Shown: piece by piece, positions 16,298 through 44,174 of the stretch | Layout of the letters: each line of letters starts with the position of its first letter | Numbering within the stretch: the first letter of the stretch is position 1 | NCBI GenBank assembly: GCA_018829905.1 | Contig: JAHJST010000025.1 | Coordinates: forward strand, 1 to 44,174 | DNA length: 44,174 bases | Direction: 5' to 3' | Source of the DNA: Patescibacteria group bacterium | Lineage (GTDB): Bacteria; Patescibacteriota; Minisyncoccia; RBG-13-40-8-A | Position numbers and translations under genes: made by a program | The notes under the pieces: model-generated | Seen by the model: only the letters and a program-made list of their open reading frames with translations | What the model was told of the DNA's origin: nothing | The model's database searches: none

Positions 16298-16821
16298 ATT
16301 GTTATTGCTATTCCTCTTGGATTATTCTTTGTTTCTTCTTCTTTTTTAATATCAAGAGGAATTGTTTCAATAAAATTATCTAATTTTTCTTTAGCAATGT
16401 ATTTTCTACCTCTTTCTCTTCCTTTTAATCTCATTTCTATTCTAACTTTATGACCTAGTTTTAAAAATTTTTCTATTTGCTTAACTCTTGTTTCTAAATC
16501 ATGAGAAGATGTATTAAAACCAATTCTTATTCCCTTTAATTCAAACTTTTTCTGTTTAGCTTTCATTTTTCTTTGTTTTTTCTCTTCAGAATATTGATAT
16601 TTACCATAATCTGTAATCTTACAAACAGGTGGGTTTGCAGTAGGAGAAATTTCTACTAAATCCAATAATCTTTCTTTTGCTATGCTTAATGCCTTAGAAG
16701 TATCAATTATTCCTAAATTTTCTCCTTTTTCATCAATAACTCGCACCTGATCGATGCGAATCATTTCATTGATTCTTGTAAGTTTTTTCTTTTCCTGTTT
16801 TCTAAAAAATGTTTTTCTCAT
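16270..16821 (-). CDS. infC: Translation initiation factor IF-3
   Basis: RINE.IR..QVRVID, LDLVEISP..NPPVCKITDYGKY, GHKV, GRE. Confidence 0.96.
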   Translation of the reverse strand: MRKTFFRKQEKKKLTRINEMIRIDQVRVIDEKGENLGIIDTSKALSIAKERLLDLVEISPTANPPVCKITDYGKYQYSEEKKQRKMKAKQKKFELKGIRIGFNTSSHDLETRVKQIEKFLKLGHKVRIEMRLKGRERGRKYIAKEKLDNFIETIPLDIKKEEETKNNPRGIAITICLEKPTNQ

Positions 16822-16823
16822 TG

Positions 16824-17171
16824 TGGAGACGGGGAGAATCGAACTCCCGTGTAAAAAAATTTTTAAAATAAATCTACAAGCATATTCTGTTTAATTAAAA
16901 CTATTTAAATAAAAAACAGAAAAAAACTTAAATAGTTTTGTCCAAAGAATTCAATATTTTAACCAGGACAAGTTAAAATATCTATCTCAAAAAACTATAA
17001 CATTCTTGATTGTGCATTGAGAATTACAATTAGAATGGCTGTATCAATTAAGCTACAGCAGGTGCAAAATTAAATTTGTTTGCAGTTGTTTTTTATTAGA
17101 TTTTTACGAGCTAACTAATATCCTCGACTTGCATATTTTAAAGAACTTTTCTATCGAAGCCTATCGTCCCC
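16824..17171 (-). ncRNA. ssrA: tmRNA (one-piece); tag ANKFNFAPAVA* at 17083-17048
   Basis: 5' GGGGACG pairs with 3' CGTCTCC-A including the G3-U alanine determinant; T-arm GGGAG-TTCGATT-CTCCC; tag ORF ending AVA; adjacent to smpB; CCA not fully encoded. Confidence 0.95.
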
Positions 17172-30823: not shown

Positions 30824-30874
30824 ATTGTAGTCAATACATACTTCAATTGTAGTCGATTTAAACTACGATGTCAA
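30824..30874 (-). promoter_or_regulatory. MNT-HEPN promoter with GACTACAAT direct repeats
   Basis: TTGACA-17 nt-TACAAT; ATTGTAGTC at 30824 and 30846. Confidence 0.72.
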
Positions 30875-30930: not shown

Positions 30931-31156
30931 TATATTTAAATTATCTACTATATTTATATTTGTTAATTAATTAAAAAATTTACTATTAACTTTATCATAA
31001 TATCTTTATTAGTATGTTCCACATTGGAACATACTAATTTTTTATATAATTTTTTACTATCTAAAATATTGTTTATATATTTTGTAATCACTGATTTTTT
31101 AATTCTAAAATGATTTTACTATCTGTTTTAAATAATTTTGTTTCATTTTTTTATAA
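30931..31156 (-). pseudogene. Collapsed relic of the nuclease-rhuM-nuclease block
   Basis: 31126-31156 vs 29584-29614: 30/31 identical; IILELK fragment of rhuM; 30931-31007 resembles 27879-27951. Confidence 0.78.
31008..31038. repeat. Perfect 14-bp inverted repeat
   Basis: ATTAGTATGTTCCA-CAT-TGGAACATACTAAT. Confidence 0.8.
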
Positions 31157-31364
31157 AATCTTCTTTGGTTAGTTTTGATTGTCTTAAAATAGATTTAAAT
31201 GTTCCTACTGGTATTTCTTTTGAATGAATAGGGACAACAACTGTTAATGTTTCTTTTTTTGTAATTTTTCTATACTTAACATGACTTCCTTTTTGAGAAA
31301 TAAAAAGAAATCCTCGTTTTTCGAGAATTTTTATTATATAACGAGAAGTAAAAATTTTAGACAT
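31143..31364 (-). CDS. hicA: HicA family toxin
   Basis: IK.LE..GF...SQKGSHVKY, VVPIH.KEIP.GT..SILRQ. Confidence 0.92.
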   Translation of the reverse strand: MSKIFTSRYIIKILEKRGFLFISQKGSHVKYRKITKKETLTVVVPIHSKEIPVGTFKSILRQSKLTKEDFIKK

Positions 31365-31575
31365 ACTTTAATTGATGCGTAGTAATAGTCGGTTGTTCCA
31401 CCTTTATAATCTCTGATTTTGGAATATCTTCTAAATATAATTCTAAGGCTTCTTCTAAATTTTTTAAAGCCTTACTTCTAGTGTCTCCGAAACTAGAAAC
31501 ATCCACATTAAGACATTGAGCAACGTAATATTTACCTTCTTTCCATGTTATATATATAAATTTATTCTTTTTCAT
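31357..31575 (-). CDS. hicB: HicB family antitoxin (short, no DNA-binding domain)
   Basis: EG.YYVAQC....VSSFGDT...AL.NL.EALELYLE. Confidence 0.9.
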   Translation of the reverse strand: MKKNKFIYITWKEGKYYVAQCLNVDVSSFGDTRSKALKNLEEALELYLEDIPKSEIIKVEQPTITTHQLKYV

Positions 31576-31759
31576 ATATTTATATTTTATTATTTAAAAA
31601 ATTAAATGTCAAGTTTTTATTTCGTATATTTTTGTATTTTTTACCTCACGGGTTTGGGTGTGTTTTTTGAGTTTTTTGTTGTTTTTCGTGAGGTGGTTTT
31701 GTTTTTGTTTTTTGGTTGTTTTCGTGAGTTTTTAAGCTGATTTTGTGGTTTTTTGTTTT

Positions 31760-31810
31760 TTATTCAATAATTTCTTCTTGTTGTATGGTTTCTTCTGGTT
31801 GTGTGGTTGA
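31760..31810 (-). pseudogene. 3' relic of an allele of the giant fibre gene
   Basis: PEETIQQEEIIE* vs PEQTPQSEAVIK*: 6/12 identical, same distance to TAA, followed by an A-run in both. Confidence 0.62.
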
Positions 31811-31904
31811 CTATGGTCCTGATAATCCTTTAAACATTAAATTTTAACATAATTAAAAAACAAACAGTAAAATGTTTGTATTTTGAATAATAAATATATT
31901 AAAT

Positions 31905-32201
31905 TTATCTTGATTTAATTCCTAATTTAAATTCTAATTTCCTAACTCTTTTTTTTAAGTCATTTACATCAAATTGAAAGGCTGTATTACCTAGTCTTAA
32001 TTTAATGTCTTCATTGGCCTGTTCTATCCTTTCTAATCTGTTCTCTACCTTATCTAATCTGTCATCTACCTTATCAAATCTTTTATCTACTTTATCAAAT
32101 CTTTTATCCATATTATCAAAACCACCTTTAACCATTTCAGCTGTAGGAAATATTTCTTTTTGGGCTTTTATTAGTTTTTTGATATCTTTATCTGTAAGCA
32201 T
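31905..32201 (-). CDS. Small coiled-coil protein with heptad repeats
   Basis: FDNMDKR-FDKVDKR-FDKVDDR-LDKVENR-LERIE; 21-bp tandem DNA repeats at about 32033-32121; promoter TTGACA-16 nt-TAAAAT 6 nt before the ATG. Confidence 0.75.
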   Translation of the reverse strand: MLTDKDIKKLIKAQKEIFPTAEMVKGGFDNMDKRFDKVDKRFDKVDDRLDKVENRLERIEQANEDIKLRLGNTAFQFDVNDLKKRVRKLEFKLGIKSR

Positions 32202-32262
32202 AGTTTAATTTTATCAAATGTTTATTCTATGTCAAGTTTTTCATTTTTATCCATAAAAAAAC

Positions 32263-32357
32263 TTGACAAGGGGTTTTTTATAATATAGAATTATAATATC
32301 ACGATGAGAGGGCACGCCTAAGGTTTCGTCCGAAGGTTACTCCCTCTCTTTTGTTTT
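32263..32357 (+). ncRNA. Putative small RNA 1 (promoter plus about 60-nt hairpin) convergent with NYN1
   Basis: TTGACA-17 nt-TAGAAT; GAGAGGG(32306)...CCCTCTC(32348) followed by TTTTGTTTT. Confidence 0.55.
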
Positions 32358-32849
32358 GCCCAATTTATGGTTTAAATCATCTATATAAATAAAATATTTA
32401 CGAAACTTTCTTAATAATGCAGAATATTTTCTACGATTAGGAATTATTATACGGAAGAGTTTTCTTTGTTTTTCTAAATATTCTATTAAACAATGAAAAT
32501 CTCCATCACCAGAGACAATAATTGCTTTATCATAATTAGGATATTCAATCATTGTATGTAATACTAATTCTGCATCAACATTTCCTTTTATAAAATTTTC
32601 TTCTTTCTTTTTGTATTCAAGGGTTGGTTTGAAAATAACAATATAACCAGTTTTTTGTAAAAAAGTATACAATGCCTCATTGCCTGGAACATAACCAATA
32701 AAAAGAAAGCTCTTTGTAACCTTATACTTGTCTTTAATATAAATATAGAATTTAGCAAAATCTAATTCCCAGCCACGATCTTTAATTGCTAAATTAAGAT
32801 TCTGACTATCTACAAAAGCATAATTATTTTCTTTTATTTTTTGACTCAT
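32337..32849 (-). CDS. NYN (LabA/DUF88, PIN-like) domain nuclease
   Basis: AFVDSQNL, KGNVDAELV, VSGDGDF: intact acidic active-site set. Confidence 0.93.
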   Translation of the reverse strand: MSQKIKENNYAFVDSQNLNLAIKDRGWELDFAKFYIYIKDKYKVTKSFLFIGYVPGNEALYTFLQKTGYIVIFKPTLEYKKKEENFIKGNVDAELVLHTMIEYPNYDKAIIVSGDGDFHCLIEYLEKQRKLFRIIIPNRRKYSALLRKFRKYFIYIDDLNHKLGKTKERE

Positions 32850-32913
32850 ATTATATAGCTTATTTTGATAATAAGTTGTTTTTTTTATTCATAAAAAAAA
32901 CTGTAAAAAAAAC

Positions 32914-32994
32914 TTGACAAGAGGTTTTTTATAAATTATACTGAATAATGTGATAGCACTCTGGGGTGTCCTTTGGACAGCCCCAGATTTTTTT
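32914..32994 (+). ncRNA. Putative small RNA 2 (promoter plus about 45-nt hairpin) convergent with NYN2
   Basis: TTGACA-17 nt-TATACT; TCTGGGG-TGTCC-TTT-GGACA-G-CCCCAGA followed by T7. Confidence 0.55.
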
Positions 32995-33429
32995 ATTGAG
33001 AAATTTCGTTTTTTAATTTGTGTAGATCAATATATTTAGCTCTTTCTAATAATTCTTTAGAAATACGCCCTCTTGTGGACATAACAATAATCCATTTACT
33101 TTTCTTTTTAATTCTATTTCGAAAGCTAATTCCATATCAAGATTTCCTTTGAGCTTATCGCGATAACTAGATATTTTTATTTTTTTAATAGCTTTGGTTC
33201 TTAAAATATATCCATTAATGTCTAGCATATCTAAAAATTTCTGTTCATTTTGCTTGTTTTCGTCATAAGCAGCGTAAATAAAACATTTTACATCCTTGCC
33301 ACATTCTTTTTTAAAATATTTCATTAATTTTTCATAAGAAATCTTCCAACCCAAAGTCCTTTGAGCATAAAAAGTATTAGCTGCGTCTATAAAAACATAT
33401 ACTTTGCCTTTAATAAATTTCTTAATCAT
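32993..33429 (-). pseudogene. NYN domain gene with internal deletion and frameshift
   Basis: VFIDAAN and KGNLDMEL present, SGD.DF missing; C-terminus KWIIVMSTRGRISKELLERAKYIDLHKLKNEISQ* continues in another frame to 32993. Confidence 0.82.
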
Positions 33430-33460
33430 ATAGCTTATTTTAATAATAAGTTATTTTTTT

Positions 33461-36400
33461 TTATTTAATAACTGCTTCTGATTGTGGTGTTTGTTCTGGT
33501 TCAATGACTGGTTTTTCAATTGGCTGTGGTTCTTCTATTGTTGGTTGTTCAACAACTGGCTTTAATAATTCATCAATTACGGGGATAGATTCCTCTGGAG
33601 CAATGTCGGCAGAACCATCTTTATCTGGGGTTGGTTCTTCAACAACTGGTTCTAGTACTGGGGTTGGGGTTGGTGTTGGTGTTGGTGTTGGTTCAATAAT
33701 TTCGGGTTCTAAAGGAGGGGTTTCTTCCTCTATTATACATGTGGAATCACAGCCGTCTCCGTCTATTTTATTGCCGTCATCACATGATTCTCCTGGTTGT
33801 ACAACACTATCTCCGCAAAAAGCTTCGACAACTCCGGCATTGTTATTATCGGATGCAATATCGGCATCTGATGCAATGTCGGCAGGAGAATCTTCCTCAT
33901 CTACTAATAAAATCCAGTAATCAAATTCTAGGGGTTCTGGGGTTACGTCGCTTAAGCGGATTGTAAATCCAGCTCCTTGTGCTTTTTCTGATATGTAGTA
34001 AGTTCTGCCTCCTGTGTCTGAGGTAAATGTAATGAATATTTTTGAATTTGTTTCAACTAGTTTATTCTTTACTCTGTATTCTATTTGTTGGGCTGGGAAT
34101 ATGTCTGAACCAACAATAGAATCTTTGTCTTTTTGTTTTTTAACTCTAAATTGTTCTACTGCTAGTTTAGTAATATTTGTTATTCCGTCTTTTATTGTTA
34201 TTCCTAGATTCTTTAAAGTGTTAATAATTTGGCTTACTATGTTTGTATCTAATGATGGAGGAAGAATAGAATGTTTAATTGTTATATTATCCTCTTTGCT
34301 TATTGATGTTCCATTCTCTTTTATTTTTATTAACTCTTTTTCATTTATACATGTTTTTCCTATACATAGTTTATTACCTATGTGTAAATCTTTGGATATT
34401 GATGCTGTGCCTGCGACTGTTAGTTTGTAGGTTGGGTTAGTTGTTCCTATGCCGACGTTATTTGAAGCGTTATCTACAAATAACGTACCACTATCTACAT
34501 TAAAATCACCTGCGACGGTAAGACCTCCTGCAAAGCTGGAACTTGCTGTTCCTGATACGGTTAAAACACCTGTTAATGCTGATGATGAGGCAAGAATTCC
34601 GCCTGCAACTTCTAACTTATATAGGGGTGAAACATTTCCGATGCCGACGTTGCCTGTGGAGTTGATTGTTATTGATTCAATATTTTGTGGTGCATTAATT
34701 ATATTCATTATTGAAAACATTTCGCTAAATGTTTGGGCCCATAGACCATGTAATTTTTCATATTCTATTGCTTTTTGATTATCAAATAATTCAGTAGTTT
34801 CTGTATGAACCGCTTCTGGTAGTATTGCTTCAACTTCCTGAGCAATCATACCTATCTGTGTTTCTTGGTTTTTATCTGGATCTGTCCAATTAAATGTTAC
34901 CCCTCTTAATTGAGATGCTTTTTCTAATGCACTTGTAACTGTTGTTATATTTGTTTTTAAACGTTCATCAGAAGATGAATGATATGCGCCAAAAACTCCA
35001 CCAACATATCCATCATCTTCAATCCAAAACACATCGCTTCCTGCGTGCTGAACATGCACAAAACTGTCCGCATCATTATTATCACTGTCCATATTTATGT
35101 ATAAATCATCTTTTGCATAATAATATCCATAAGTAGAATACCCTTGATAAGTAGTTGCAGTTATTGTTCCAGAAGCATTAAAAGCAGTTCTATCTATCGT
35201 TGCTTCTAAGAGCGCGTCTGCCAATGTTCCTATTGAAAAGAAGGATGTTGCACTGTCTCCTGTTAAGGCAGATCCTGCTTCAGCATCACCAGCAGCATAA
35301 TTACCAGTAGTATCTGTGCCCAAAGCAACTGAATTAGCAGCAATTGTTGTTGTAATTGCTGTTGTTCCTGAACCAGTAACATCTCCTGATAATGTAATTG
35401 TTTGATTTCCTGTAAGATATGAAGAATCATTGGTCCACATAGATATATTTCCTGTAGCTCCTGTTAATGCTCCTCCAGTAAGTATGGCTGTGCCATCTGT
35501 TAAGGTTCCTCCTCTAATTATGTCTGTAGCTGTTAATGAATCAGATATTGATGCACGTACAAAATCAAACTTAATACCTCCTGTAATATTACCTGATAAT
35601 TTAATATTACCTACAACATCTAATTTTTCTGCTGGCCCCGTCGTCCCGATGCCGACGTTGCCGCTCGTTCCATAAATCCCCATTCGCACCGTTCTTGCAC
35701 TACCATTCCAATTAGACAATTCTACATTCGTAACATTGGAGGAAGGATTAGAAAATCTCATTCCACCCCACGAAGAGGCAGGTGAACCTACACGAAAATC
35801 AGTTGCGGAGTGAGAAGTGTCATTTGAACCCATAGAAAATTTGAAAATAACATCATCATCAGTTGTCCCAGTACCCGCAACCTCAAGTTTTCCAGTCGGG
35901 TTCGTCGTCCCGATGCCGACGTTGCCTCTTTGTGTTCCGCCCCCAATAGTCATTGCGATACTTGAACCGCCCACATTTCCCGTAACAAAATTGATATTGC
36001 CGTAAGTGCCGCCACTGGCCGCATAATTATTTACGATATTCGTGTCGACATAATTACTGCCGAAACGAAATGGCCCCGCCCCGCCATTATTCTGCTCAAA
36101 CTCCGAAGTATATACCGCTGCTGTGGCTCGTATTATTCCGCTGCCACCTCCGTTGACTGGGACGGTTTGAAAGTTGCCCAGAACCAAATTCGTGCCCGTG
36201 GTTTCAGCCTTAAAGACGTTTAGCAAAGCCCCTGGACTCGTTGTCCCGATGCCGACGTTGCCTGATGTTGTTAATGTTCCCACTGTTAACCCAGCGTCGC
36301 CACTATCATCAGCCAGTCTAACCGCTAAAGTTGTTGCGCTCTTTTTTAATGCAGGAAAAGAAGAAGTCGTGCCACCAAATTTAAGCATTGAAAAATCAGT

Positions 36401-39400
36401 TTGTGCATCGTTATACAGCTGTATTACTCCATCAGTAGCACTATCTATTCTAAATCTATTACTTTTTTGCAATACTCCCCCAAAGGCCACGTCACTAGTA
36501 AAATAACCTGTTCCGACAACATATAAAGCTTTTGTCGGCCCTGTTGTCCCGATGCCTATATTTCCTTGAACATATAAATGAGATGAGATTGATGCTATTC
36601 CATCAAAACTAACACTTCCTGAGCTTACAATTGAACTTCTAAAGATGGCTGTTCCATTTACGTCTAATAAAGCAGCAGGAACGGTTGTCCCGATGCCGAC
36701 GTTGCCTTGAATTGCTAATCCGTCCGTTGGTCCTGCAGAAGCCGCATATCCTGAACCAATGACAGCATTTCCACTGACGGCTAACTTTGACCCAGGCGAA
36801 GCTGTCCCGATGCCGACGTTGTCGCTTATATATGCCGTCCCTAAAACATCAAGAGTGTTAGTTGGGTCGGTAGTGGCATTATCCGCTATAGTAATACCTG
36901 AAGCTCCGATAAGCATCTTTGTTTTTGAGGTTGAAACATTATATATAGCAAAACCACCATTAGCCGCTGCTGGTTTTCCTGCGACTAATTGCCAACTTTG
37001 ACCATTAGCCCCAGTATTAACTATCCCAATTCGTGAAGTTGATTGGTCTCCTGATGATACAGTTAATAATGACCCTGGCGCCGTCGTCCCGATGCCGACG
37101 TTGCCTCCTGATAATATAGTCATACGACTTGTTCCAGTAACAGTCGTATTATTGGCTGCTGTAAAAAATTGTATATTGGTAGCTGCATTCATTATAGAAG
37201 ACCCTCCACCAATTTGCACATAATTATCGCTTGTATCTGACACGGCATACATTAAACTAATTGGTTCTTCTGCGTTTGTATAATGATACATACCCAAACG
37301 ACCATATTTATCTGTGGTGTTTGTTCTTGTATTAGCTGCTGAATCAGCACCTAATACAATAGATAATCCACCATTTGCAACATCAAGTTTTCCAGTCGGA
37401 TTCGTCGTCCCGATGCCGACGTTGCCGCTTGGTTGTATTCTCATCCTTTCCACACCAGTATTTGAGGTAACTGGATTTGTAACAAATCGTATAGCACTTC
37501 CGCCATTACTACCATCTGTGTCCCCTATTACTGAAATATCTAATATACGAGTATAAGGTGCACCAGCAATTGTGTAAGAATCTAATGTGGTCTTAGCTGG
37601 ACTATTCCAAGTTTTAAGAGATACCCCTGTTCCAGAAATACCGAATGATAACTGACCAACTGGCGCCGTCGTCCCGATGCCGACGTTGCCTTGTATTGTA
37701 AATTGTCCTGATACGCTCGCTGTGCCATCAACGGCTAATTTAGCAGTCGGAAGGAGAGTCCCGATGCCGACGTTGCCGTTCATTACTGCTAACCCTGCTG
37801 TCCCTGGAGTAGCTGTTCCTATTCCAACATTTCCTCCACTTGTGATAGTCATTGCTAAAGAATTATTATTACCAAATTTCATATCAGTATTTTCAAAATT
37901 CCAAAATAAAGGTTGTTCTACTGAATTTAGTCCTATCCTAAGTCCATCTGAGGTAGTTTGCCCGGTCCCATCATTTGTAAAATATTGATAAGTAGTTGCC
38001 CCTGTTGCACCATTATGTAACCATAACGGAATTGCATTTACATTACTTGTTCCAACATCTACCTGAAGTTTAGATAATGAAGGATTAGTCGTCCCGATGC
38101 CGACGTTGCCTGATTTATCTATTGTCACTGCCGTAGTCAATGTCCCGCCAGTGTTAGCAGTTCGTAAGTAAAGTTTGCCACCCACATCCACGGAGGTATC
38201 CTGAAGTCCGCCAGCAATAGCCGCTGGTGTATAACGAGTAGTGCCGCTACTATAATGATTTTCAAAAACTAATTGTGACTGTATGTTAGTTGGAGCCCAC
38301 GCATTAGTAATACCAGAACTAATTACAGCAAGGGTATTAAACCCTGTATTGTCGTTTACATTTTTAAGAACATCAAATAATACTGTAGGACTAGTCGTCC
38401 CGATGCCGACGTTGCCGGCACTTGTTATTCTGACCTGTTCCGTTTGCGCCCCACCATTTGTGTTGGTGGTAAATGTTATCTTTGATGGAGGACGATTCCC
38501 TGATGTAGGTACCCCATCAACCGAAAGTAATATGCCCGCGGTAGCAAAAAAACCTGTGCCTCCATGTGCATTTCCTTGAAGTAGAAGGATTTGATCTCCA
38601 TCAGAAACAATAGAAGGAGAAGCATGTGTCCCACCCGATCTTACCCCATATATTACAGACCTTGCCCCTGCTCCAGATATAGCTAGACTACTTTCTACCG
38701 CATCTTTGGCTAAATGTAATTGATACCCCGGCCCCGTCGTCCCGATGCCGACGTTGCCGTTCATTACTGCCAGACCCGCTGTCCCTGGATTAGCAGTACC
38801 AATTCCAATATTTCCACTTCCAAATATTGTTATTGCATTGACAGGGGTTCCAGCCGTTTTTGTGCGGAAATACCAGTTACTAACGTCAGTGTTAAACGGG
38901 AAATCCACATATACTTGACCAGTTGTAGCGTTTACCCACGTATCTAGCCCGGAATCAGTACCACTTCTAAAGATTTTGAAATGCGGATTTCCACTCGATG
39001 GCTCTATGTGAAGATTAGCCGTCGGCCCCGTCGTCCCGATGCCGACGTTGCCTTGATTTTGTATATACAAGACCTCGCTGATACTGGCTGTGCCTGCTAC
39101 TTCCAATGTTGCCCCTATATCGGTTGTCCCGATGCCGACGTTGCCGCTACTTCTTTGAATCCTCATAGCCTCATAATATGAACCACCGTAATATCTATCT
39201 ATTGCTAAATCAGAATCTGGAGTGACAGAGTGTCTAAATCCCCAATAAGGACTAGTAGCATAATTAAACCTTAGAATTGGAGTTGTTCCTGGGGTATCTG
39301 ACCTATTAACGGTTGATAGGTTTAATAACGCTCCTGGGTCGCTGGTGCCTATACCTACCATTGAGTTTGATGCTACAACAAAGGTTGTGTCCATTATTCT

Positions 39401-42400
39401 GGTTTCTGCACTTATAGATGCTGTCCCATCAACGCTTAACTTATATCCAGGGCTGGTGTCTCCGATGCCGACGTTGCCTTGATTTGTTATTCTCATTTTC
39501 TCGGAAATATTAACTGCATCACGATATGTGGTGAAAAATGCTAATCCCGTAGTACCACCAAATGTATCATTTTCATCTACTGCGGTAATTTTTGCTCTAA
39601 CTCCAGCTACACCTGACGTCCAGGCACTAACATCATTTGAATAAAATTGTAATTGTCCTATTGTTTCTCCATCAGCCACAACAGTATTACTAGATTCAAG
39701 TCGTAAGATATTATTAGCGGAAGTACTTTTTATATTAAGAAGTGCCCCCGGCCCCGTCGTCCCGATGCCGACGTTGCCCGTTATATCATTCATATTTATA
39801 GTACCTACTCCAGAAATTATAGACAATGTATTGGCAGTATTTCCATAATTTATCTGCCCTTTTATTGTTCCTGCTGATTTAAATAAAATTCCCGGCACTC
39901 CACTTGTTGTTGTATCTAAAGTAATATATCCATAACCTGCGTCCCCTTTAAATTTTGCTACTCCAATACCGCTTACATGAGTTCCCAAAACATCTAATGT
40001 CGCCCCCGGCGTTGTCGTCCCGATGCCCACATAATTAGCACCCGCATCTACATAAAGGGTGCCGCTGTCTATGTTCATTCCTGATGCTACGGTTAGTTCG
40101 TCCCATAGGGTTAAAGCTCCTGAGATAGATGCTGTGCCATCAACGCTTAGTTTAGCAGTCGGAAGGATAGTCCCGATGCCGACGTTGCCGGTTCCTTTTA
40201 TAGTCATCACAACGTCACTGGTTGTCTTGTAAGCAGAATTGAAAAGCGAATGAAAATTAAAATTGGTCGAAGTACCATCAAACACCATTCCAATACCTCC
40301 GACGGGCGTACCATTTGCTCCAACTTCATTTCGCCATATAATACCCTTTGTCCCCGTTCCCAACCCGCCAATATTATGTAACGTAAGTATTTCTGCGTCA
40401 GTAGTAGTACCAATGTTAGTTTGGATGTGTAATTTCCCCTGAGGTCCCGTCGTCCCGATGCCGACGTTGCCGCCAGTGAAATAAGAATTACCGGACCCTG
40501 CCGATTGTACAGGTCCGGGTCTGAACTTTTCGTAGCCGGTTCCTGGATTATCTCTAACCGCTATCGCTCCGTCACTTTCAATAGCTAGTTGTGAAGCAAC
40601 CACTCCTCCCCAGTGAAAGCTGAGCCGCGGCGGTAGATAGGCACTTGTACCACCAAATTGGGCTTCACGTAATTGTATTGGAGCTGTAGCATAATTAGTA
40701 GCTACATTATCACTTTGAGCCAGGATAGAGCTGCCGAGTGCTTTTATATTACCATTTACATCCAACTTCGCCCCTGGAGACACAGTCCCGATGCCGACGT
40801 TGCCTTGATTTTGTATATACAAGACCTCGCTGATACTGGCTGTGCCTGCTACTTCCAATGTTGCCCCTATATCGGTTGTCCCGATGCCGACGTTGCCGTT
40901 CTGGTCCATCAACATACCAGTATTCAATGTGCCACCTGAATTATATGTTTGTAGCTGTAACTTACCTCCTTGTCCAACAACTGGATTAAAATAAGCCGAA
41001 ATTAATGCATGATTATAGTAACCATTAAAAGTAAGTGATTCTCCTTGGGTATAATCTTGTGCGCTTGGATTACTCAAAGTAACAAGATTTGCAATACCAA
41101 AAAAACCCTTATTGACTGTTAGAGGTGCCCCCGGCCCCGTTGTCCCGATGCCGACGTTGCCTGAGCTTACTATCACATTGTTTCTCGGGTTTAAAATTAT
41201 ATTATCAGTTCCAGCTTGGTGAAAATCTATAAGGAGACGACTTGTCCCATCCGAATCCTTAAAATTATATCCTGTATATGACCCTTGATTTCCTTGAAAT
41301 TCAAGTATTCCATTACTACTATTTCTACCTATTTTGTAGTAAATCCCACCACCCATACCTATTCTTAATTGATCGCTTGAAGTTGTTCCTACAATGTCCA
41401 GAGCACTTCCCGGTGCCGTCGTCCCGATGCCGACGTTGCCTTGTATTGTAAATTGTCCTGATACGCTGGCGGTGCCATCAACGCTTAGTTTAGCAGTCGG
41501 AAGGAGAGTCCCGATGCCGACGTTGCCAGTGCTTGCAATACTCATTAATTCGAGTCCAGTACCACTTAAAATAGATAATCTTTCAGAATCTTCGCCATCT
41601 TGATAATTAGACCTGATAGTAAATCTCTTGTCTGTCTCATTTCCTGAAGTAATATCAAAAGAAGCAGTAGCAGTAGAGGCAATACTTAATAAAGCAGTAG
41701 GCCCCGTCGTCCCGATGCCGACGTTGCCGAGTACATTGAAACCATATTCACCAGCACCAATATTCTCCAAAGTTAATGACGTATCTGTATACCCTGTATT
41801 TGTTAGTATTCTAAATTTCCTAGCTGCAGTAGCATCAATCAATAGTGGGTAAGTAGAATTTTGAGGGTCTTTGAGTGCCAATATATCATCACCATTAGAA
41901 GCAGCAGCCACTTCCAACTTCGCCCCTGGACTCGTTGTGCCGATGCCGACGTTGCCTTGTATTATAGTTTGTCCTGAGATACTTGCAGTGCCATCAACGC
42001 TTAGTTTAGCAGTCGGAAGGAGAGTCCCGATGCCGACGTTGCCGCTGTCTAAAAAGGTTACAAGTTCCGCTCCACCAGTGGTTGTTGTTCTATTATGACC
42101 AAAATGATAGCCGGCCCCCGTTTGATTGTTATCCGAATCAATATTAAAAAACATTTCATCCGCAGTATTGATAGTTGCATTGATAGATCCCGCCGTACCC
42201 AATGTCAAAACCGGAGAAAAATTAGCGGTACCTAAGAATGTTCCCTCACCGGCAACTACAAGTTTTGTCCCCGGACTCGTTGTCCCGATGCCGACGTTGC
42301 CGCTTCCTTCTAAATGCAACACCGGGCTTGAACTCCAAGTTCCTGCAGAAGTAAGTAAATAATAATCAAGTTTTCCAGAAGAAACACCAGCTGAATATTT

Positions 42401-44173
42401 TGTTCCCTGTAAATAAGCTGTGTTTAAACCATCAACATCAAAAAGTATAATCTTCTGTCCTGTGGTTGAATCTAATCTCATCGCTCCAACCGCAGAACCA
42501 CCTGTGTCTATATCTAATTTAGCCCCCGGTCCCGTCGTCCCGATGCCGACGTTGCCGGTTGATTGCTCAAGAACCATTACATTCTTTGCGTTTTGCTCGT
42601 CAAAAAAGTACAAATGCGTTGCATCATTCGCACGCTGTCCAATACTCCATCTCCATCCACTCGCACCTGTATTGAAATACAAATTAGCATCGCTTGTTGA
42701 GACAGAACGTGTAATTCCAATTCCACTTGAATTCTTCGCTACTTCAAGAGCCAACACTGGATTCGTCGTCCCGATGCCGACGTTGCCGCTTCCTAAAATT
42801 GTGACCAAATCCGTTGTGTAATTCTGAATTTTAAGAACAGTTTCAGTGGCGGCGAGTGCCATAATTGATGTTCCTGCTACATCCTTTTTTGCGCCTACAA
42901 TGCCAACTGCCTGCAATGTTGCTGTTGGAGAATTACTTCCAATTATTCCGAATAAATCCAATCCTTGAGCATTAGCGTCAGATGCTCCATATAATCTGTA
43001 TCCTCCAGCAGTTGAAGATATAATGGTATGGTAAGCAAAAGTAGTATCATTAGACGCACCGAACCATCCTGATAAGCCATTACTTACATCTGCGTCGGAG
43101 AGAATAAAATTTCCATCACGAACATCTAATTTTCCAGTCGGCGCCGTCGTCCCGATGCCGACGTTGCCTGTTTCTGTTATTCTAACCTTTTCACCATTAT
43201 CGGAACCATAAAAAGCAGACATACCATCATCTCTTACAATAAATCTTGTAGCCCCAGCAGAATTTGCTGCTTCAAGTGAATATGTAGCCGAGGTTGTTCC
43301 TGCACCTCTTATAGACAACCTACCATTTCCAACTCCCGCTGTTCCGACTCTAAGGTCACCGGTTATTATCCCAATACCTACAACATGAAGAGGTGAGCTT
43401 GGCACCGTCGTCCCGATGCCGACGTTGCCTTGACTATCTATTCTCATTTTCTCGGTTAAATTAGTAGCACTTCCTCCAAGGTTAGTATAGAAAACCATAT
43501 CCTGCCTATAATTAATACCTTGTCCAACAGATATAGTGCCTATTTTCCCAGCCTGCCAATTCTCCCCAGTATACCCTGCCATAAAACCAATCGCTGGACC
43601 GGAAACGACGTCCCCAGCAGCCGGTCCCGCTTGTAGATTTAATACCGTGTTTAAACCAGACGCTGTAGAACCTTTAATATGCAAATTATAGAGTGGCCCC
43701 GTCGTCCCGATGCCGACGTTGCCTTGATTTTGTATATACAAGACCTCGCTGATACTGGCTGTGCCTGCTACTTCCAATGTTGCCCCTATATCGGTTGTCC
43801 CGATGCCGACGTTGCCAGAAGTATTGATTGTCATAGCCAATACTCCATTAGCGCCTAATTGTAATTTGGAACCAATTCCACTAGATAAAATAGCTAAATC
43901 GGTAGACAACCCTCCACTAAATTCTTGATCAGCATTTGCAATTCTACCAATTATTGTCCCCCCGACAGACAATGCTATTTCCGCACGAGTTGCATGATTA
44001 ACGGTCAATAACTCGCCCGGTGCCGTCGTCCCGATGCCGACGTTGCCGCTTGTTTGTTCAATGACTACCTTTGGTGTAGCCGCACCTGCAAAAAACTCTG
44101 CACGACCGCTGTCTTTTAAAACAAACAAATTCAAAGTATTGGCTTCGTTATTAAACCTATATCCTGCCGCCGC
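33461..44173 (-). CDS. Giant GNVGIGT-repeat fibre/adhesin with peptidase S74 chaperone domain (5' partial, >3570 aa)
   Basis: Frame open to the window edge; about 40 GNVGIGT-like motifs; SDERLK..RGVTFNW..GMIAQEVE; Cys-rich repeat; Pro/Glu tail. Confidence 0.88.
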   Translation of the reverse strand, partial: AAAGYRFNNEANTLNLFVLKDSGRAEFFAGAATPKVVIEQTSGNVGIGTTAPGELLTVNHATRAEIALSVGGTIIGRIANADQEFSGGLSTDLAILSSGIGSKLQLGANGVLAMTINTSGNVGIGTTDIGATLEVAGTASISEVLYIQNQGNVGIGTTGPLYNLHIKGSTASGLNTVLNLQAGPAAGDVVSGPAIGFMAGYTGENWQAGKIGTISVGQGINYRQDMVFYTNLGGSATNLTEKMRIDSQGNVGIGTTVPSSPLHVVGIGIITGDLRVGTAGVGNGRLSIRGAGTTSATYSLEAANSAGATRFIVRDDGMSAFYGSDNGEKVRITETGNVGIGTTAPTGKLDVRDGNFILSDADVSNGLSGWFGASNDTTFAYHTIISSTAGGYRLYGASDANAQGLDLFGIIGSNSPTATLQAVGIVGAKKDVAGTSIMALAATETVLKIQNYTTDLVTILGSGNVGIGTTNPVLALEVAKNSSGIGITRSVSTSDANLYFNTGASGWRWSIGQRANDATHLYFFDEQNAKNVMVLEQSTGNVGIGTTGPGAKLDIDTGGSAVGAMRLDSTTGQKIILFDVDGLNTAYLQGTKYSAGVSSGKLDYYLLTSAGTWSSSPVLHLEGSGNVGIGTTSPGTKLVVAGEGTFLGTANFSPVLTLGTAGSINATINTADEMFFNIDSDNNQTGAGYHFGHNRTTTTGGAELVTFLDSGNVGIGTLLPTAKLSVDGTASISGQTIIQGNVGIGTTSPGAKLEVAAASNGDDILALKDPQNSTYPLLIDATAARKFRILTNTGYTDTSLTLENIGAGEYGFNVLGNVGIGTTGPTALLSIASTATASFDITSGNETDKRFTIRSNYQDGEDSERLSILSGTGLELMSIASTGNVGIGTLLPTAKLSVDGTASVSGQFTIQGNVGIGTTAPGSALDIVGTTSSDQLRIGMGGGIYYKIGRNSSNGILEFQGNQGSYTGYNFKDSDGTSRLLIDFHQAGTDNIILNPRNNVIVSSGNVGIGTTGPGAPLTVNKGFFGIANLVTLSNPSAQDYTQGESLTFNGYYNHALISAYFNPVVGQGGKLQLQTYNSGGTLNTGMLMDQNGNVGIGTTDIGATLEVAGTASISEVLYIQNQGNVGIGTVSPGAKLDVNGNIKALGSSILAQSDNVATNYATAPIQLREAQFGGTSAYLPPRLSFHWGGVVASQLAIESDGAIAVRDNPGTGYEKFRPGPVQSAGSGNSYFTGGNVGIGTTGPQGKLHIQTNIGTTTDAEILTLHNIGGLGTGTKGIIWRNEVGANGTPVGGIGMVFDGTSTNFNFHSLFNSAYKTTSDVVMTIKGTGNVGIGTILPTAKLSVDGTASISGALTLWDELTVASGMNIDSGTLYVDAGANYVGIGTTTPGATLDVLGTHVSGIGVAKFKGDAGYGYITLDTTTSGVPGILFKSAGTIKGQINYGNTANTLSIISGVGTINMNDITGNVGIGTTGPGALLNIKSTSANNILRLESSNTVVADGETIGQLQFYSNDVSAWTSGVAGVRAKITAVDENDTFGGTTGLAFFTTYRDAVNISEKMRITNQGNVGIGDTSPGYKLSVDGTASISAETRIMDTTFVVASNSMVGIGTSDPGALLNLSTVNRSDTPGTTPILRFNYATSPYWGFRHSVTPDSDLAIDRYYGGSYYEAMRIQRSSGNVGIGTTDIGATLEVAGTASISEVLYIQNQGNVGIGTTGPTANLHIEPSSGNPHFKIFRSGTDSGLDTWVNATTGQVYVDFPFNTDVSNWYFRTKTAGTPVNAITIFGSGNIGIGTANPGTAGLAVMNGNVGIGTTGPGYQLHLAKDAVESSLAISGAGARSVIYGVRSGGTHASPSIVSDGDQILLLQGNAHGGTGFFATAGILLSVDGVPTSGNRPPSKITFTTNTNGGAQTEQVRITSAGNVGIGTTSPTVLFDVLKNVNDNTGFNTLAVISSGITNAWAPTNIQSQLVFENHYSSGTTRYTPAAIAGGLQDTSVDVGGKLYLRTANTGGTLTTAVTIDKSGNVGIGTTNPSLSKLQVDVGTSNVNAIPLWLHNGATGATTYQYFTNDGTGQTTSDGLRIGLNSVEQPLFWNFENTDMKFGNNNSLAMTITSGGNVGIGTATPGTAGLAVMNGNVGIGTLLPTAKLAVDGTASVSGQFTIQGNVGIGTTAPVGQLSFGISGTGVSLKTWNSPAKTTLDSYTIAGAPYTRILDISVIGDTDGSNGGSAIRFVTNPVTSNTGVERMRIQPSGNVGIGTTNPTGKLDVANGGLSIVLGADSAANTRTNTTDKYGRLGMYHYTNAEEPISLMYAVSDTSDNYVQIGGGSSIMNAATNIQFFTAANNTTVTGTSRMTILSGGNVGIGTTAPGSLLTVSSGDQSTSRIGIVNTGANGQSWQLVAGKPAAANGGFAIYNVSTSKTKMLIGASGITIADNATTDPTNTLDVLGTAYISDNVGIGTASPGSKLAVSGNAVIGSGYAASAGPTDGLAIQGNVGIGTTVPAALLDVNGTAIFRSSIVSSGSVSFDGIASISSHLYVQGNIGIGTTGPTKALYVVGTGYFTSDVAFGGVLQKSNRFRIDSATDGVIQLYNDAQTDFSMLKFGGTTSSFPALKKSATTLAVRLADDSGDAGLTVGTLTTSGNVGIGTTSPGALLNVFKAETTGTNLVLGNFQTVPVNGGGSGIIRATAAVYTSEFEQNNGGAGPFRFGSNYVDTNIVNNYAASGGTYGNINFVTGNVGGSSIAMTIGGGTQRGNVGIGTTNPTGKLEVAGTGTTDDDVIFKFSMGSNDTSHSATDFRVGSPASSWGGMRFSNPSSNVTNVELSNWNGSARTVRMGIYGTSGNVGIGTTGPAEKLDVVGNIKLSGNITGGIKFDFVRASISDSLTATDIIRGGTLTDGTAILTGGALTGATGNISMWTNDSSYLTGNQTITLSGDVTGSGTTAITTTIAANSVALGTDTTGNYAAGDAEAGSALTGDSATSFFSIGTLADALLEATIDRTAFNASGTITATTYQGYSTYGYYYAKDDLYINMDSDNNDADSFVHVQHAGSDVFWIEDDGYVGGVFGAYHSSSDERLKTNITTVTSALEKASQLRGVTFNWTDPDKNQETQIGMIAQEVEAILPEAVHTETTELFDNQKAIEYEKLHGLWAQTFSEMFSIMNIINAPQNIESITINSTGNVGIGNVSPLYKLEVAGGILASSSALTGVLTVSGTASSSFAGGLTVAGDFNVDSGTLFVDNASNNVGIGTTNPTYKLTVAGTASISKDLHIGNKLCIGKTCINEKELIKIKENGTSISKEDNITIKHSILPPSLDTNIVSQIINTLKNLGITIKDGITNITKLAVEQFRVKKQKDKDSIVGSDIFPAQQIEYRVKNKLVETNSKIFITFTSDTGGRTYYISEKAQGAGFTIRLSDVTPEPLEFDYWILLVDEEDSPADIASDADIASDNNNAGVVEAFCGDSVVQPGESCDDGNKIDGDGCDSTCIIEEETPPLEPEIIEPTPTPTPTPTPVLEPVVEEPTPDKDGSADIAPEESIPVIDELLKPVVEQPTIEEPQPIEKPVIEPEQTPQSEAVIK
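35643..44047 (-). repeat. Dispersed in-frame 20-bp repeat GGCAACGTCGGCATCGGGAC
   Basis: 31 perfect copies counted by eye, plus about 7 variants extending to about 34443; all in the same codon phase. Confidence 0.95.
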
Positions 44174-44174
44174 A

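Follow-up and report, generated by a model that had tools for sequence, protein, structure and literature searches.

Why should a nuclease gene run head-on into a strong promoter that drives little more than a hairpin? The question is raised by contig JAHJST010000025.1 of a Patescibacteria group bacterium (assembly GCA_018829905.1), whose full length of 44,174 nucleotides (nt) is called the window here. Two genes of the NYN nuclease family, NYN1 and NYN2, lie on its minus strand, and the 3′ end of each faces a putative small RNA gene on the plus strand, RNA1 and RNA2, respectively. A preliminary description of this DNA had taken these pairs for candidate modules of a nuclease and an RNA antitoxin. 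Comparison across genomes shows each unit to be a two-gene cassette: an accessory, horizontally spread NYN nuclease gene is joined to a strongly promoted, convergent gene for a predicted hairpin RNA of 45-60 nt, and the predicted intrinsic terminator of the RNA abuts or overlaps the NYN stop codon.

Two convergent RNA genes in the window

Both putative RNA genes have the features of a bacterial small RNA gene, namely a near-consensus sigma-70 promoter, a stable hairpin, a U-tract on one strand and conservation in relatives (Table 1). The predicted folds reach -21.4 kcal/mol (z -3.43) for RNA1 and -21.0 kcal/mol (z -4.99; positions 32949-32996 folded) for RNA2. The T-runs behind both hairpins occur on the plus strand only and are thus oriented for the small RNA, as the preliminary description had stated. 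Its observations of two near-consensus antisense promoters, each followed by a hairpin and a U-tract with no plausible open reading frame (ORF), hold as well, since no ORF within RNA1 or RNA2 exceeds four codons. A small peptide encoded by these RNAs was dropped as a candidate, because the frames are this short and not conserved. Each RNA is a single hairpin without the repeat array that marks type III antitoxins. RNA1 covers 21 nt of the NYN1 coding region and the 3′ flank, and the overlap with the last NYN1 codons that had been claimed is real; RNA2 is confined to the 3′ flank. It had also been claimed that RNA2 ends at the true NYN2 stop. This stands only in part: the T-run of RNA2 does contain the complement of the TAA at 32993-32995, but NYN2 is not intact and this TAA is out of frame.

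Table 1. Positions of the NYN genes, their RNA partners and the associated repeats in the window
Feature	Position	Strand	Description
RNA1 promoter	32263-32291	+	-35 TTGACA (32263-32268), 17-nt spacer, -10 TAGAAT (32286-32291); 11 of 12 consensus positions
RNA1	32298-32357	+	Putative hairpin RNA of about 55-60 nt; 5′ AUCAC start, GG-UUUCGU-CC apical loop, U-tract; overlaps the NYN1 stop and last codons
RNA2 promoter	32914-32942	+	TTGACA, 17-nt spacer, TATACT; 11 of 12 consensus positions; equivalents at NYN2-type loci
RNA2	32947-32996	+	Putative RNA of about 48 nt; conserved single-stranded 5′ part, 12-bp GC-rich hairpin, U-tract with the complement of the NYN2 stop
NYN1	32337-32849	-	Nuclease gene of the PF01936 family (LabA-like, PIN-fold), 170 amino acids; catalytic Asp residues complete
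NYN2	32993-33429	-	Broken; N-terminal ORF 33046-33429 (127 amino acids), out-of-frame C-terminal remnant to TAA 32993; junction 33116/33117
Direct repeat copy	32850-32886		Just 5′ of the NYN1 start; pairs with 33425-33461 (37 nt, 92% identity, spacing 575)
Direct repeat copy	33425-33461		Just 5′ of the NYN2 start and adjoining the giant gene's stop codon

A 24-nt block is common to the two promoters and occurs only at 32259-32282 and 32910-32933, with no occurrence expected (100 shuffles). Its A-tract, CTTGACAAG and T-rich spacer are the general strong-promoter consensus of this genome, which is also found 5′ of ordinary genes, a tRNA gene and the RNase P RNA gene. Thus, the shared block is not in itself a paralogous repeat. 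A DnaA-box-like TTATCCACA lies near the RNA1 promoter, at 32249-32257. The same word is found 0-20 nt 5′ of the -35 element at many promoters of this genome (e.g., C27:1403, C27:18441, C8:6598 and C12:11921), and similar boxes precede the promoters of many NYN RNAs elsewhere. In these bacteria, the box appears to be linked to promoters in general. DnaA control specific to the NYN RNAs was rejected, as the genome has 22 exact boxes, about 10 of them beside TTGAC.

With the Rfam 15 covariance models, nothing relevant matched the region 31000-34000 at E values up to 10, and at gathering scores a tmRNA gene (16821-17171, minus strand; RF00023, 120.8 bits) was the sole match in the whole window. 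Two contigs matching RNA1 were found in two metatranscriptome runs, both in X19. They match over 32297-32336 and 32298-32366 only and have flanks unlike those of the window. These contigs are relatives' copies and could have originated from DNA carry-over, so that they have no bearing on expression here. No RNA run was listed among those containing the stretch.

NYN1 and its homologues are accompanied by the RNA gene

NYN1 matches PF01936 with 54.5 bits (cut-off 24.2) and the structure 2qip of the PDB with an E value of 2.5e-9. Its residues D14, D92, D115 and D117 are kept in 41-42 of 42 homologues. No match was obtained with NCBIfam, and PADLOC gave generic NYN and HEC-09 hits only.

Is the RNA gene conserved beside homologous genes, as the proposed pairing predicts? 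Of 401 genomes sampled from the class, 138 have NYN1-type genes (E <= 1e-20), and the strand opposite the NYN gene was examined just past its stop codon. An antisense promoter and an RNA starting with AUCAC are present at 42 of the 43 usable loci, the window included; one locus (L012) is devoid of the RNA and another (L040) is cut by a contig end. Across the family, the RNA folds into a long hairpin with interruptions, has GG-UUYGU-CC at its apex and carries a U-tract at its end. The NYN stop codon falls anywhere from position 1 to position 62 of the RNA. Therefore, the RNA is conserved for itself and not via the protein code.

The scan was extended across phyla with one genome per species, which gave 80 loci with 59-84% protein identity. 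The names of these metagenome-assembled genomes (MAGs) include Doudna-, Parcu-, Gottesman-, Sacchari-, Peri- and Gracilibacteria, WWE3, WS6, Omnitrophota, Elusimicrobiota, Planctomycetes, Melainabacteria and others, and some of the labels may be binning errors. Promoter and RNA were found at all 79 usable loci, the remaining one (L159) being cut by a contig end. A covariance model of the RNA, R2, matched 43 of the 79 at the expected place and strand, and the other 36 were assigned by eye or regular expression to the RNA subtype of the window. Among 109 RNAs with enough upstream sequence, 101 have a correctly placed sigma-70 promoter, that is, a TTGAC-type -35 element, a 16-19-nt spacer and a TAnnnT -10 element 3-10 nt before the first base.

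No close NYN1 homologue was found without the RNA. The exceptional locus L012 (genome G033) encodes a NYN variant of about 250 amino acids that is matched in 12 of 12 sampled genomes of genus g30; RNA absence was recorded in this one locus that was read. The variant gene is followed by a gene on the same strand with a MutM-like N-terminus, as judged by eye from the letters. A housekeeping NYN paralogue located 5′ of pnp in the genome of the window (C5 10296-10832) has no such RNA.

The fold covaries and belongs to the plus strand

Three alignments were assessed for covariation. The first, A5 (32 sequences), has 93.8% of cells paired and 14 of 17 pairs compensated, and its slid controls are 46-77% paired; this alignment was fitted to the model and leans towards structure, a bias to be held against the reading favoured below. 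The other two were made with MAFFT. A11 contains 58 sequences of the RNA1 subtype of the window (group B), with 96.6% of cells paired, 10 of 10 pairs compensated (72 cells) and slid controls at 51-66%. A7 contains 10 sequences of the RNA2 type 2a, with 99.1% of cells paired, 5 of 12 pairs compensated and slid controls at 27-46%. In each case, both the covariation score and the percentage of paired cells exceeded those of all 500 shuffles, while the compensated-pair count of A7 taken by itself was matched by 2 of 500.

Which strand carries the fold? G-U cells can pair only on the small RNA strand, while A-C cells correspond to G-U on the NYN-sense strand. The ratio of G-U to A-C cells is 25:1 in A5, 51:4 in A11 and 8:0 in A7. 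Therefore, the fold belongs to the RNA read from the plus strand of the window. The covarying hairpin and the conserved antisense promoter, for which the preliminary description had proposed to search downstream of NYN homologues, are thus both found, with compensatory changes in both folds. The NYN-coupled small RNA gene is almost certainly real.

RNAalifold on a plain MAFFT alignment of 40 sequences gave only three pairs because the outer stems were misaligned, and the model-based and subgroup alignments were used instead. A model restricted to group A (R1) was too narrow, giving 18.6 bits and an E value of 0.17 for the window; R2 matches the window at 32298-32352 with 29.1 bits and an E value of 9.5e-4. 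A pseudoknot between the 5′ tail and the loop was also considered and dropped, as loop variants change without a matching change in the tail (by eye, with no formal count). At 32319-32336 of the window, and in the group-B RNAs, a conserved internal loop flanked by two short G-C helices has UAA on one side and GAA on the other, similar to the UAA/GAN loop motif. In another RNA subtype, this loop is swapped for Watson-Crick pairs.

NYN2-type genes have an unrelated RNA in the same place

NYN1 and NYN2 represent separate clades, which share only 29% identity. NYN2 matches PF01936 with 43.5 bits over profile positions 1-85 only. By three-frame reading, a deletion with a frameshift near 33116 has removed the SGDxDF catalytic motif (the SGDSDF segment, with D115 and D117). 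An intact orthologue of 169 amino acids (L019) was used as the query for NYN2-type genes, which were found in 24 of 401 genomes of the class. A promoter and a hairpin that ends at the stop codon are present at no fewer than 25 of the 27 NYN2-type loci. Twenty of the 27 fall into two RNA types defined by regular expressions, 2a (10 loci, window included) and 2b (10 loci); at least five more have another promoter, hairpin and T-run abutting the stop, and two (L093 and L099) were not clearly assigned. The NYN2-type RNAs are unrelated in sequence to RNA1. RNA1 and RNA2 are thus members of RNA families that have no relation to one another, and each family goes with one NYN clade in the same 3′-to-3′ layout. 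The cognate pairs suggested at the outset are borne out to this extent.

The lesion of NYN2 was traced in public groundwater sequencing runs. In run X2, a DNA contig (depth 63.5) has 71 extra letters exactly at 33116/33117. Judging from the coordinates, these and 2 shared letters would make 73 nt and would restore a NYN2 gene of 510 nt. In run X4, both flanking contigs break at 33116/33117, and the deleted junction is bridged by a contig of 58 nt, at a depth of 6.2 compared with 20-23 in the flanks. X4 holds both NYN2 forms, and a further 11-nt deletion at 33326 is fixed there. The 73-nt deletion is thus polymorphic in the population. The NYN2 gene of another genome (G130) likewise carries a stop. 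From the lesions in the window, X4 and G130, it follows that NYN genes decay recurrently while the RNA gene stays intact.

Searching from the RNA side leads back to NYN

The class was also searched with the RNA model alone, ignoring the protein (E <= 1e-3). This gave 59 hits in 48 of 151 genomes. A full-length convergent NYN gene adjoins 39 of them, and 5 adjoin a NYN fragment, a frameshifted gene, an internally deleted gene of 60-75 amino acids or a gene cut by a contig end. Ten lack a NYN gene detectable by hidden Markov model, one of which keeps a NYN C-terminal coding remnant beside hicAB, and the last 5 are weak hits that are probably false. Of the 54 credible hits, 44 therefore have a convergent NYN gene or remnant. 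Hits were also obtained in 16 of 151 genomes from other classes of the phylum, with a convergent NYN gene at 11 of 12 fetched loci. In the genome of the window, RNA1 at NYN1 is the only credible R2 hit. At three loci (L043, G089:C4 87763-87817; L047, 1340-1395; and L112), a tandem second RNA copy of a different subtype lies about 100 nt beyond the first without a NYN gene of its own.

Some units are flanked by repeats, and no conserved protein partner was found

No conserved protein partner was found beside the NYN genes, the largest flanking family occurring at 4 of 42 loci. The lack of an obvious protein antitoxin noted in the preliminary description is thus supported. A conserved NYN 5′ leader or promoter was not found either; the upstream regions differ between loci. 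In the window, a pair of direct repeats (Table 1) brackets the NYN2-RNA2 unit, and a third, degenerate copy lies at about 32205-32263, beyond the RNA1 promoter. At 16 of 105 loci, the sequence 5′ of the NYN start and that on the far side of the RNA promoter share a direct repeat whose score exceeds the 99th percentile of mismatched controls. Several of these repeats extend up to and include an ATG.

How might the RNA act?

The RNA probably restrains NYN. The best explanation overall, on which my confidence is evenly divided, is that it does so in a type I-like manner, most likely by antisense pairing at the 3′ end; that antisense pairing is the main route could equally prove right or wrong. 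The RNA would be the antidote of a costly nuclease, and the unit would behave as a toxin-antitoxin or self-limiting selfish module. No NYN-oriented terminator was found ahead of the RNA gene, so that NYN transcripts would have to enter it, and their 3′ region would become fully complementary to the RNA. An abundant RNA would then pair with the 3′ end of the NYN mRNA, probably starting loop to loop. The hairpin loops of the RNA and the NYN mRNA are complementary, and the loop sequences UUCG and UUUG presumably fit the YUNR U-turn motif. RNase III, which is encoded in this genome, would cut the duplex, by which the protective 3′ hairpin would be lost and the NYN level lowered. Since two unrelated RNA families share the 3′-to-3′ geometry, the geometry itself seems to matter. 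This shared geometry, the lack of a NYN-oriented terminator, the complementary loops and the presence of RNase III are the reasons for favouring antisense action. As for the antidote role, the RNA outlives NYN, staying intact beside truncated NYN genes of 60-75 amino acids, frameshifted NYN genes and the broken NYN2 of the window. Together with the lack of a protein partner, the HicAB and MNT-HEPN genes alongside and the housekeeping NYN gene without RNA, this argues for an antidote.

Several observations weigh against restraint by 3′-end antisense pairing. The sequences of the unpaired 5′ tail and the apical loop are maintained among loci whose proteins are 36-84% identical, including those in which they do not code for protein. 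Such conservation would be superfluous in an RNA acting only in cis by antisense pairing, and it fits recognition by a protein. The NYN2-type RNAs overlap the coding region little or not at all, and antisense action would there require read-through of the NYN mRNA. About 10 RNA copies have no detectable NYN gene, and about 6 of these have near-consensus promoters; the orphan and tandem copies hint at action in trans. Moreover, a simple terminator scan flagged neither of the two hairpins in the window, because of their bulges or internal loops. The part of Matelska et al. 2017 (PMC5499597) available to me lists the function of PF01936 as unknown and does not place the family among the predicted toxins of toxin-antitoxin systems.

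Does the RNA rather act on the protein? In a type III-like manner, the hairpin RNA would bind NYN directly, blocking the active site or serving as a decoy substrate, and the convergence would only keep the two genes linked. I consider this rather unlikely, although the conservation of the unpaired parts (the 5′ AUCAC tail, the UUYGU loop and the UAA/GAA-type internal loop) across distant hosts, whatever the coding overlap, speaks for it. So do the separate RNA type of each NYN clade, the intact catalytic residues of a PIN-fold RNase-type enzyme, and the orphan or tandem RNA copies with good promoters, which could neutralise NYN made elsewhere. However, tandem RNA repeats are absent, the RNA gene does not precede the NYN gene within one operon, and NYN belongs to none of the toxin families ToxN, CptN and TenpN. 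Direct binding also leaves unexplained why the terminator lies exactly at the NYN stop in two unrelated RNA families. Antisense pairing and direct inhibition of the protein could act together.

It is less probable still that the RNA is not an inhibitor, and instead serves as a substrate or cofactor processed by NYN, as a trans regulator of other genes, or as a cassette-end element used for spread. A mobile-like cassette with homologues of 59-84% identity in several phyla, the flanking repeats at 16 of 105 loci and the 37-nt repeat pair of the window would agree with such a role, as would a conserved 5′ tail typical of seed regions and the copies without NYN. On the other hand, the only credible copy in the genome adjoins NYN1, and 44 of 54 credible hits lie at NYN genes or remnants; a candidate trans target or mobility enzyme was not found, and the RNA has no variable guide-like segment. 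That no functional RNA exists, the promoter-like sequences having arisen by chance in AT-rich DNA beside bidirectional terminators, is hardly credible: promoter-like sites in the region number 37 against 41.2 expected from shuffles and the genome has many promoter-plus-hairpin units, but the comparative data contradict this explanation, since promoter position, RNA sequence and fold persist at over 120 loci from several phyla, pairs change in a compensatory manner, G-U pairs are specific to one strand, and the T-run is confined to the RNA strand.

Genomic setting

The window is contig C23 of a 641-kb genome with 28% G+C in 27 contigs, and the sequencing runs that contain it carry the label groundwater metagenome. 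On the minus strand, the gene order is a giant repeat-protein gene (stop at 33461), NYN2, NYN1, a coiled-coil gene, a HicB-like/HicA pair, an MNT-HEPN pair and a PD-(D/E)XK gene. The position among toxin-antitoxin cassettes noted in the preliminary description was confirmed by Pfam profile search, HicA, HicB-like and MNT-HEPN modules adjoining the NYN units.

The giant ORF (33461-44174) is still open at the window end and encodes more than 3557 amino acids with GNVGIGTT-type repeats; its C-terminal part is Cys-rich and Pro/Thr-rich. The coiled-coil gene (98 amino acids) has three 21-nt tandem repeats at 32023-32106 coding for (D/N)KRFDKVD heptads. About 190 nt of non-coding DNA (31606-31800) lie between this gene and the promoter of the hicB-like gene; they are strongly G/T-rich on the plus strand, or A/C-rich on the gene strand, with recurring CTCACGAAAA-like words and a 7-nt inverted repeat. 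The promoters of the coiled-coil, hicB-like/hicA and MNT-HEPN units (32208-32235, 31584-31612 and 30846-30874, all on the minus strand) end 6-11 nt ahead of the start codon, with no Shine-Dalgarno sequence. This suggests that the mRNAs are leaderless or near-leaderless.

Promoter-plus-hairpin units are numerous in this genome. Candidate small RNA genes with a near-consensus promoter, a structured stretch and a T-run but no ORF lie at C24 23247(-), C4 13058(-), C7 9160(-) and C20 33535(-), and more of that make-up at C24 329(+), C24 28558(+), C26 35066(-) and C3 7020(+).

Relation to known systems and significance

RNAI and RNAII of the Enterococcus faecalis par locus form a convergent type I pair with a shared terminator. 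In IS10, RNA-OUT is a stable stem-loop antisense RNA with a strong promoter, which pairs with RNA-IN from its loop and restrains a weakly expressed transposase. RNA-OUT covers the 5′ end and the ribosome-binding site of its target, whereas with NYN the overlap lies at the 3′ end, and NYN is not known as a transposase. In the type I modules txpA/RatA and yonT/SR6 of Bacillus subtilis, as described in the available parts of PMC5848175 and PMC3531473, a short and strong convergent antisense RNA likewise lies over the 3′ end of the gene; these modules and the NYN cassette are alike in lying on mobile or accessory DNA, having RNase III available and using a terminator hairpin common to both strands. 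The hallmark of type I is a small hydrophobic toxin (PMC6563280, in part), whereas the candidate toxin here is a soluble PIN-fold nuclease of 170 amino acids, and the sequence of the NYN-associated RNA is conserved over phyla. The type III systems ToxIN, CptIN and TenpIN (PMC8860590, PMC3401426 and PMC13682666, each in part) likewise combine an RNase-type protein with a small non-coding RNA, lack a protein antitoxin and have clade-specific RNAs. In contrast to them, the NYN RNA has no tandem repeats to be processed, is convergent with a promoter of its own rather than upstream in an operon, and accompanies a protein of the NYN fold family. The NYN-small RNA module proposed in the preliminary description is therefore real, conserved and clade-specific; it lacks the type III hallmarks, and its layout is closer to type I. 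The antitoxin idea seems right in outline, the antitoxin role itself being what I infer.

The LabA-like NYN proteins (PF01936/COG1432, 2qip) belong to the same Pfam family as NYN1 and share its catalytic Asp set, and no RNA partner or toxin-antitoxin role is reported for them in the available part of PMC5499597. Bacterial PF01936 proteins number thousands, and the same source lists their function as unknown. NYN, LabA and DUF88 do not occur in the main text of Weinberg et al. 2017, and its supplements could list such a motif. A literature search found no description of a NYN-associated RNA. The NYN-small RNA cassette is real and widespread, with no earlier description found. With about one third of the genomes sampled from the class carrying it, the cassette is a common accessory element of these very small genomes.

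A wider reading, possible though I lean against it, is that of a widespread selfish cassette: a promoterless nuclease gene would insert at the start of a host gene and duplicate the leader, and the convergent RNA would restrain it through antisense pairing or by binding the protein, or in both ways. By the duplicated host leader, NYN would borrow the expression signals of the host. If true, this would be a new class of RNA-controlled toxin-antitoxin system or mobile nuclease element, common in Patescibacteria and present also in Omnitrophota, Elusimicrobiota, Planctomycetes and Melainabacteria.

The Candidate Phyla Radiation and other uncultured phyla, from which, to my knowledge, few small RNAs have been described, here yield two structured RNA families that are new, with no counterpart found in Rfam 15. 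For the PF01936 family, a dedicated and covarying RNA partner is the first concrete regulatory handle, and it makes testable the idea that the accessory NYN genes are toxic or selfish. If this is true, a PIN-fold nuclease would join the RNA-antitoxin systems, with a layout unlike type III and a toxin unlike type I.

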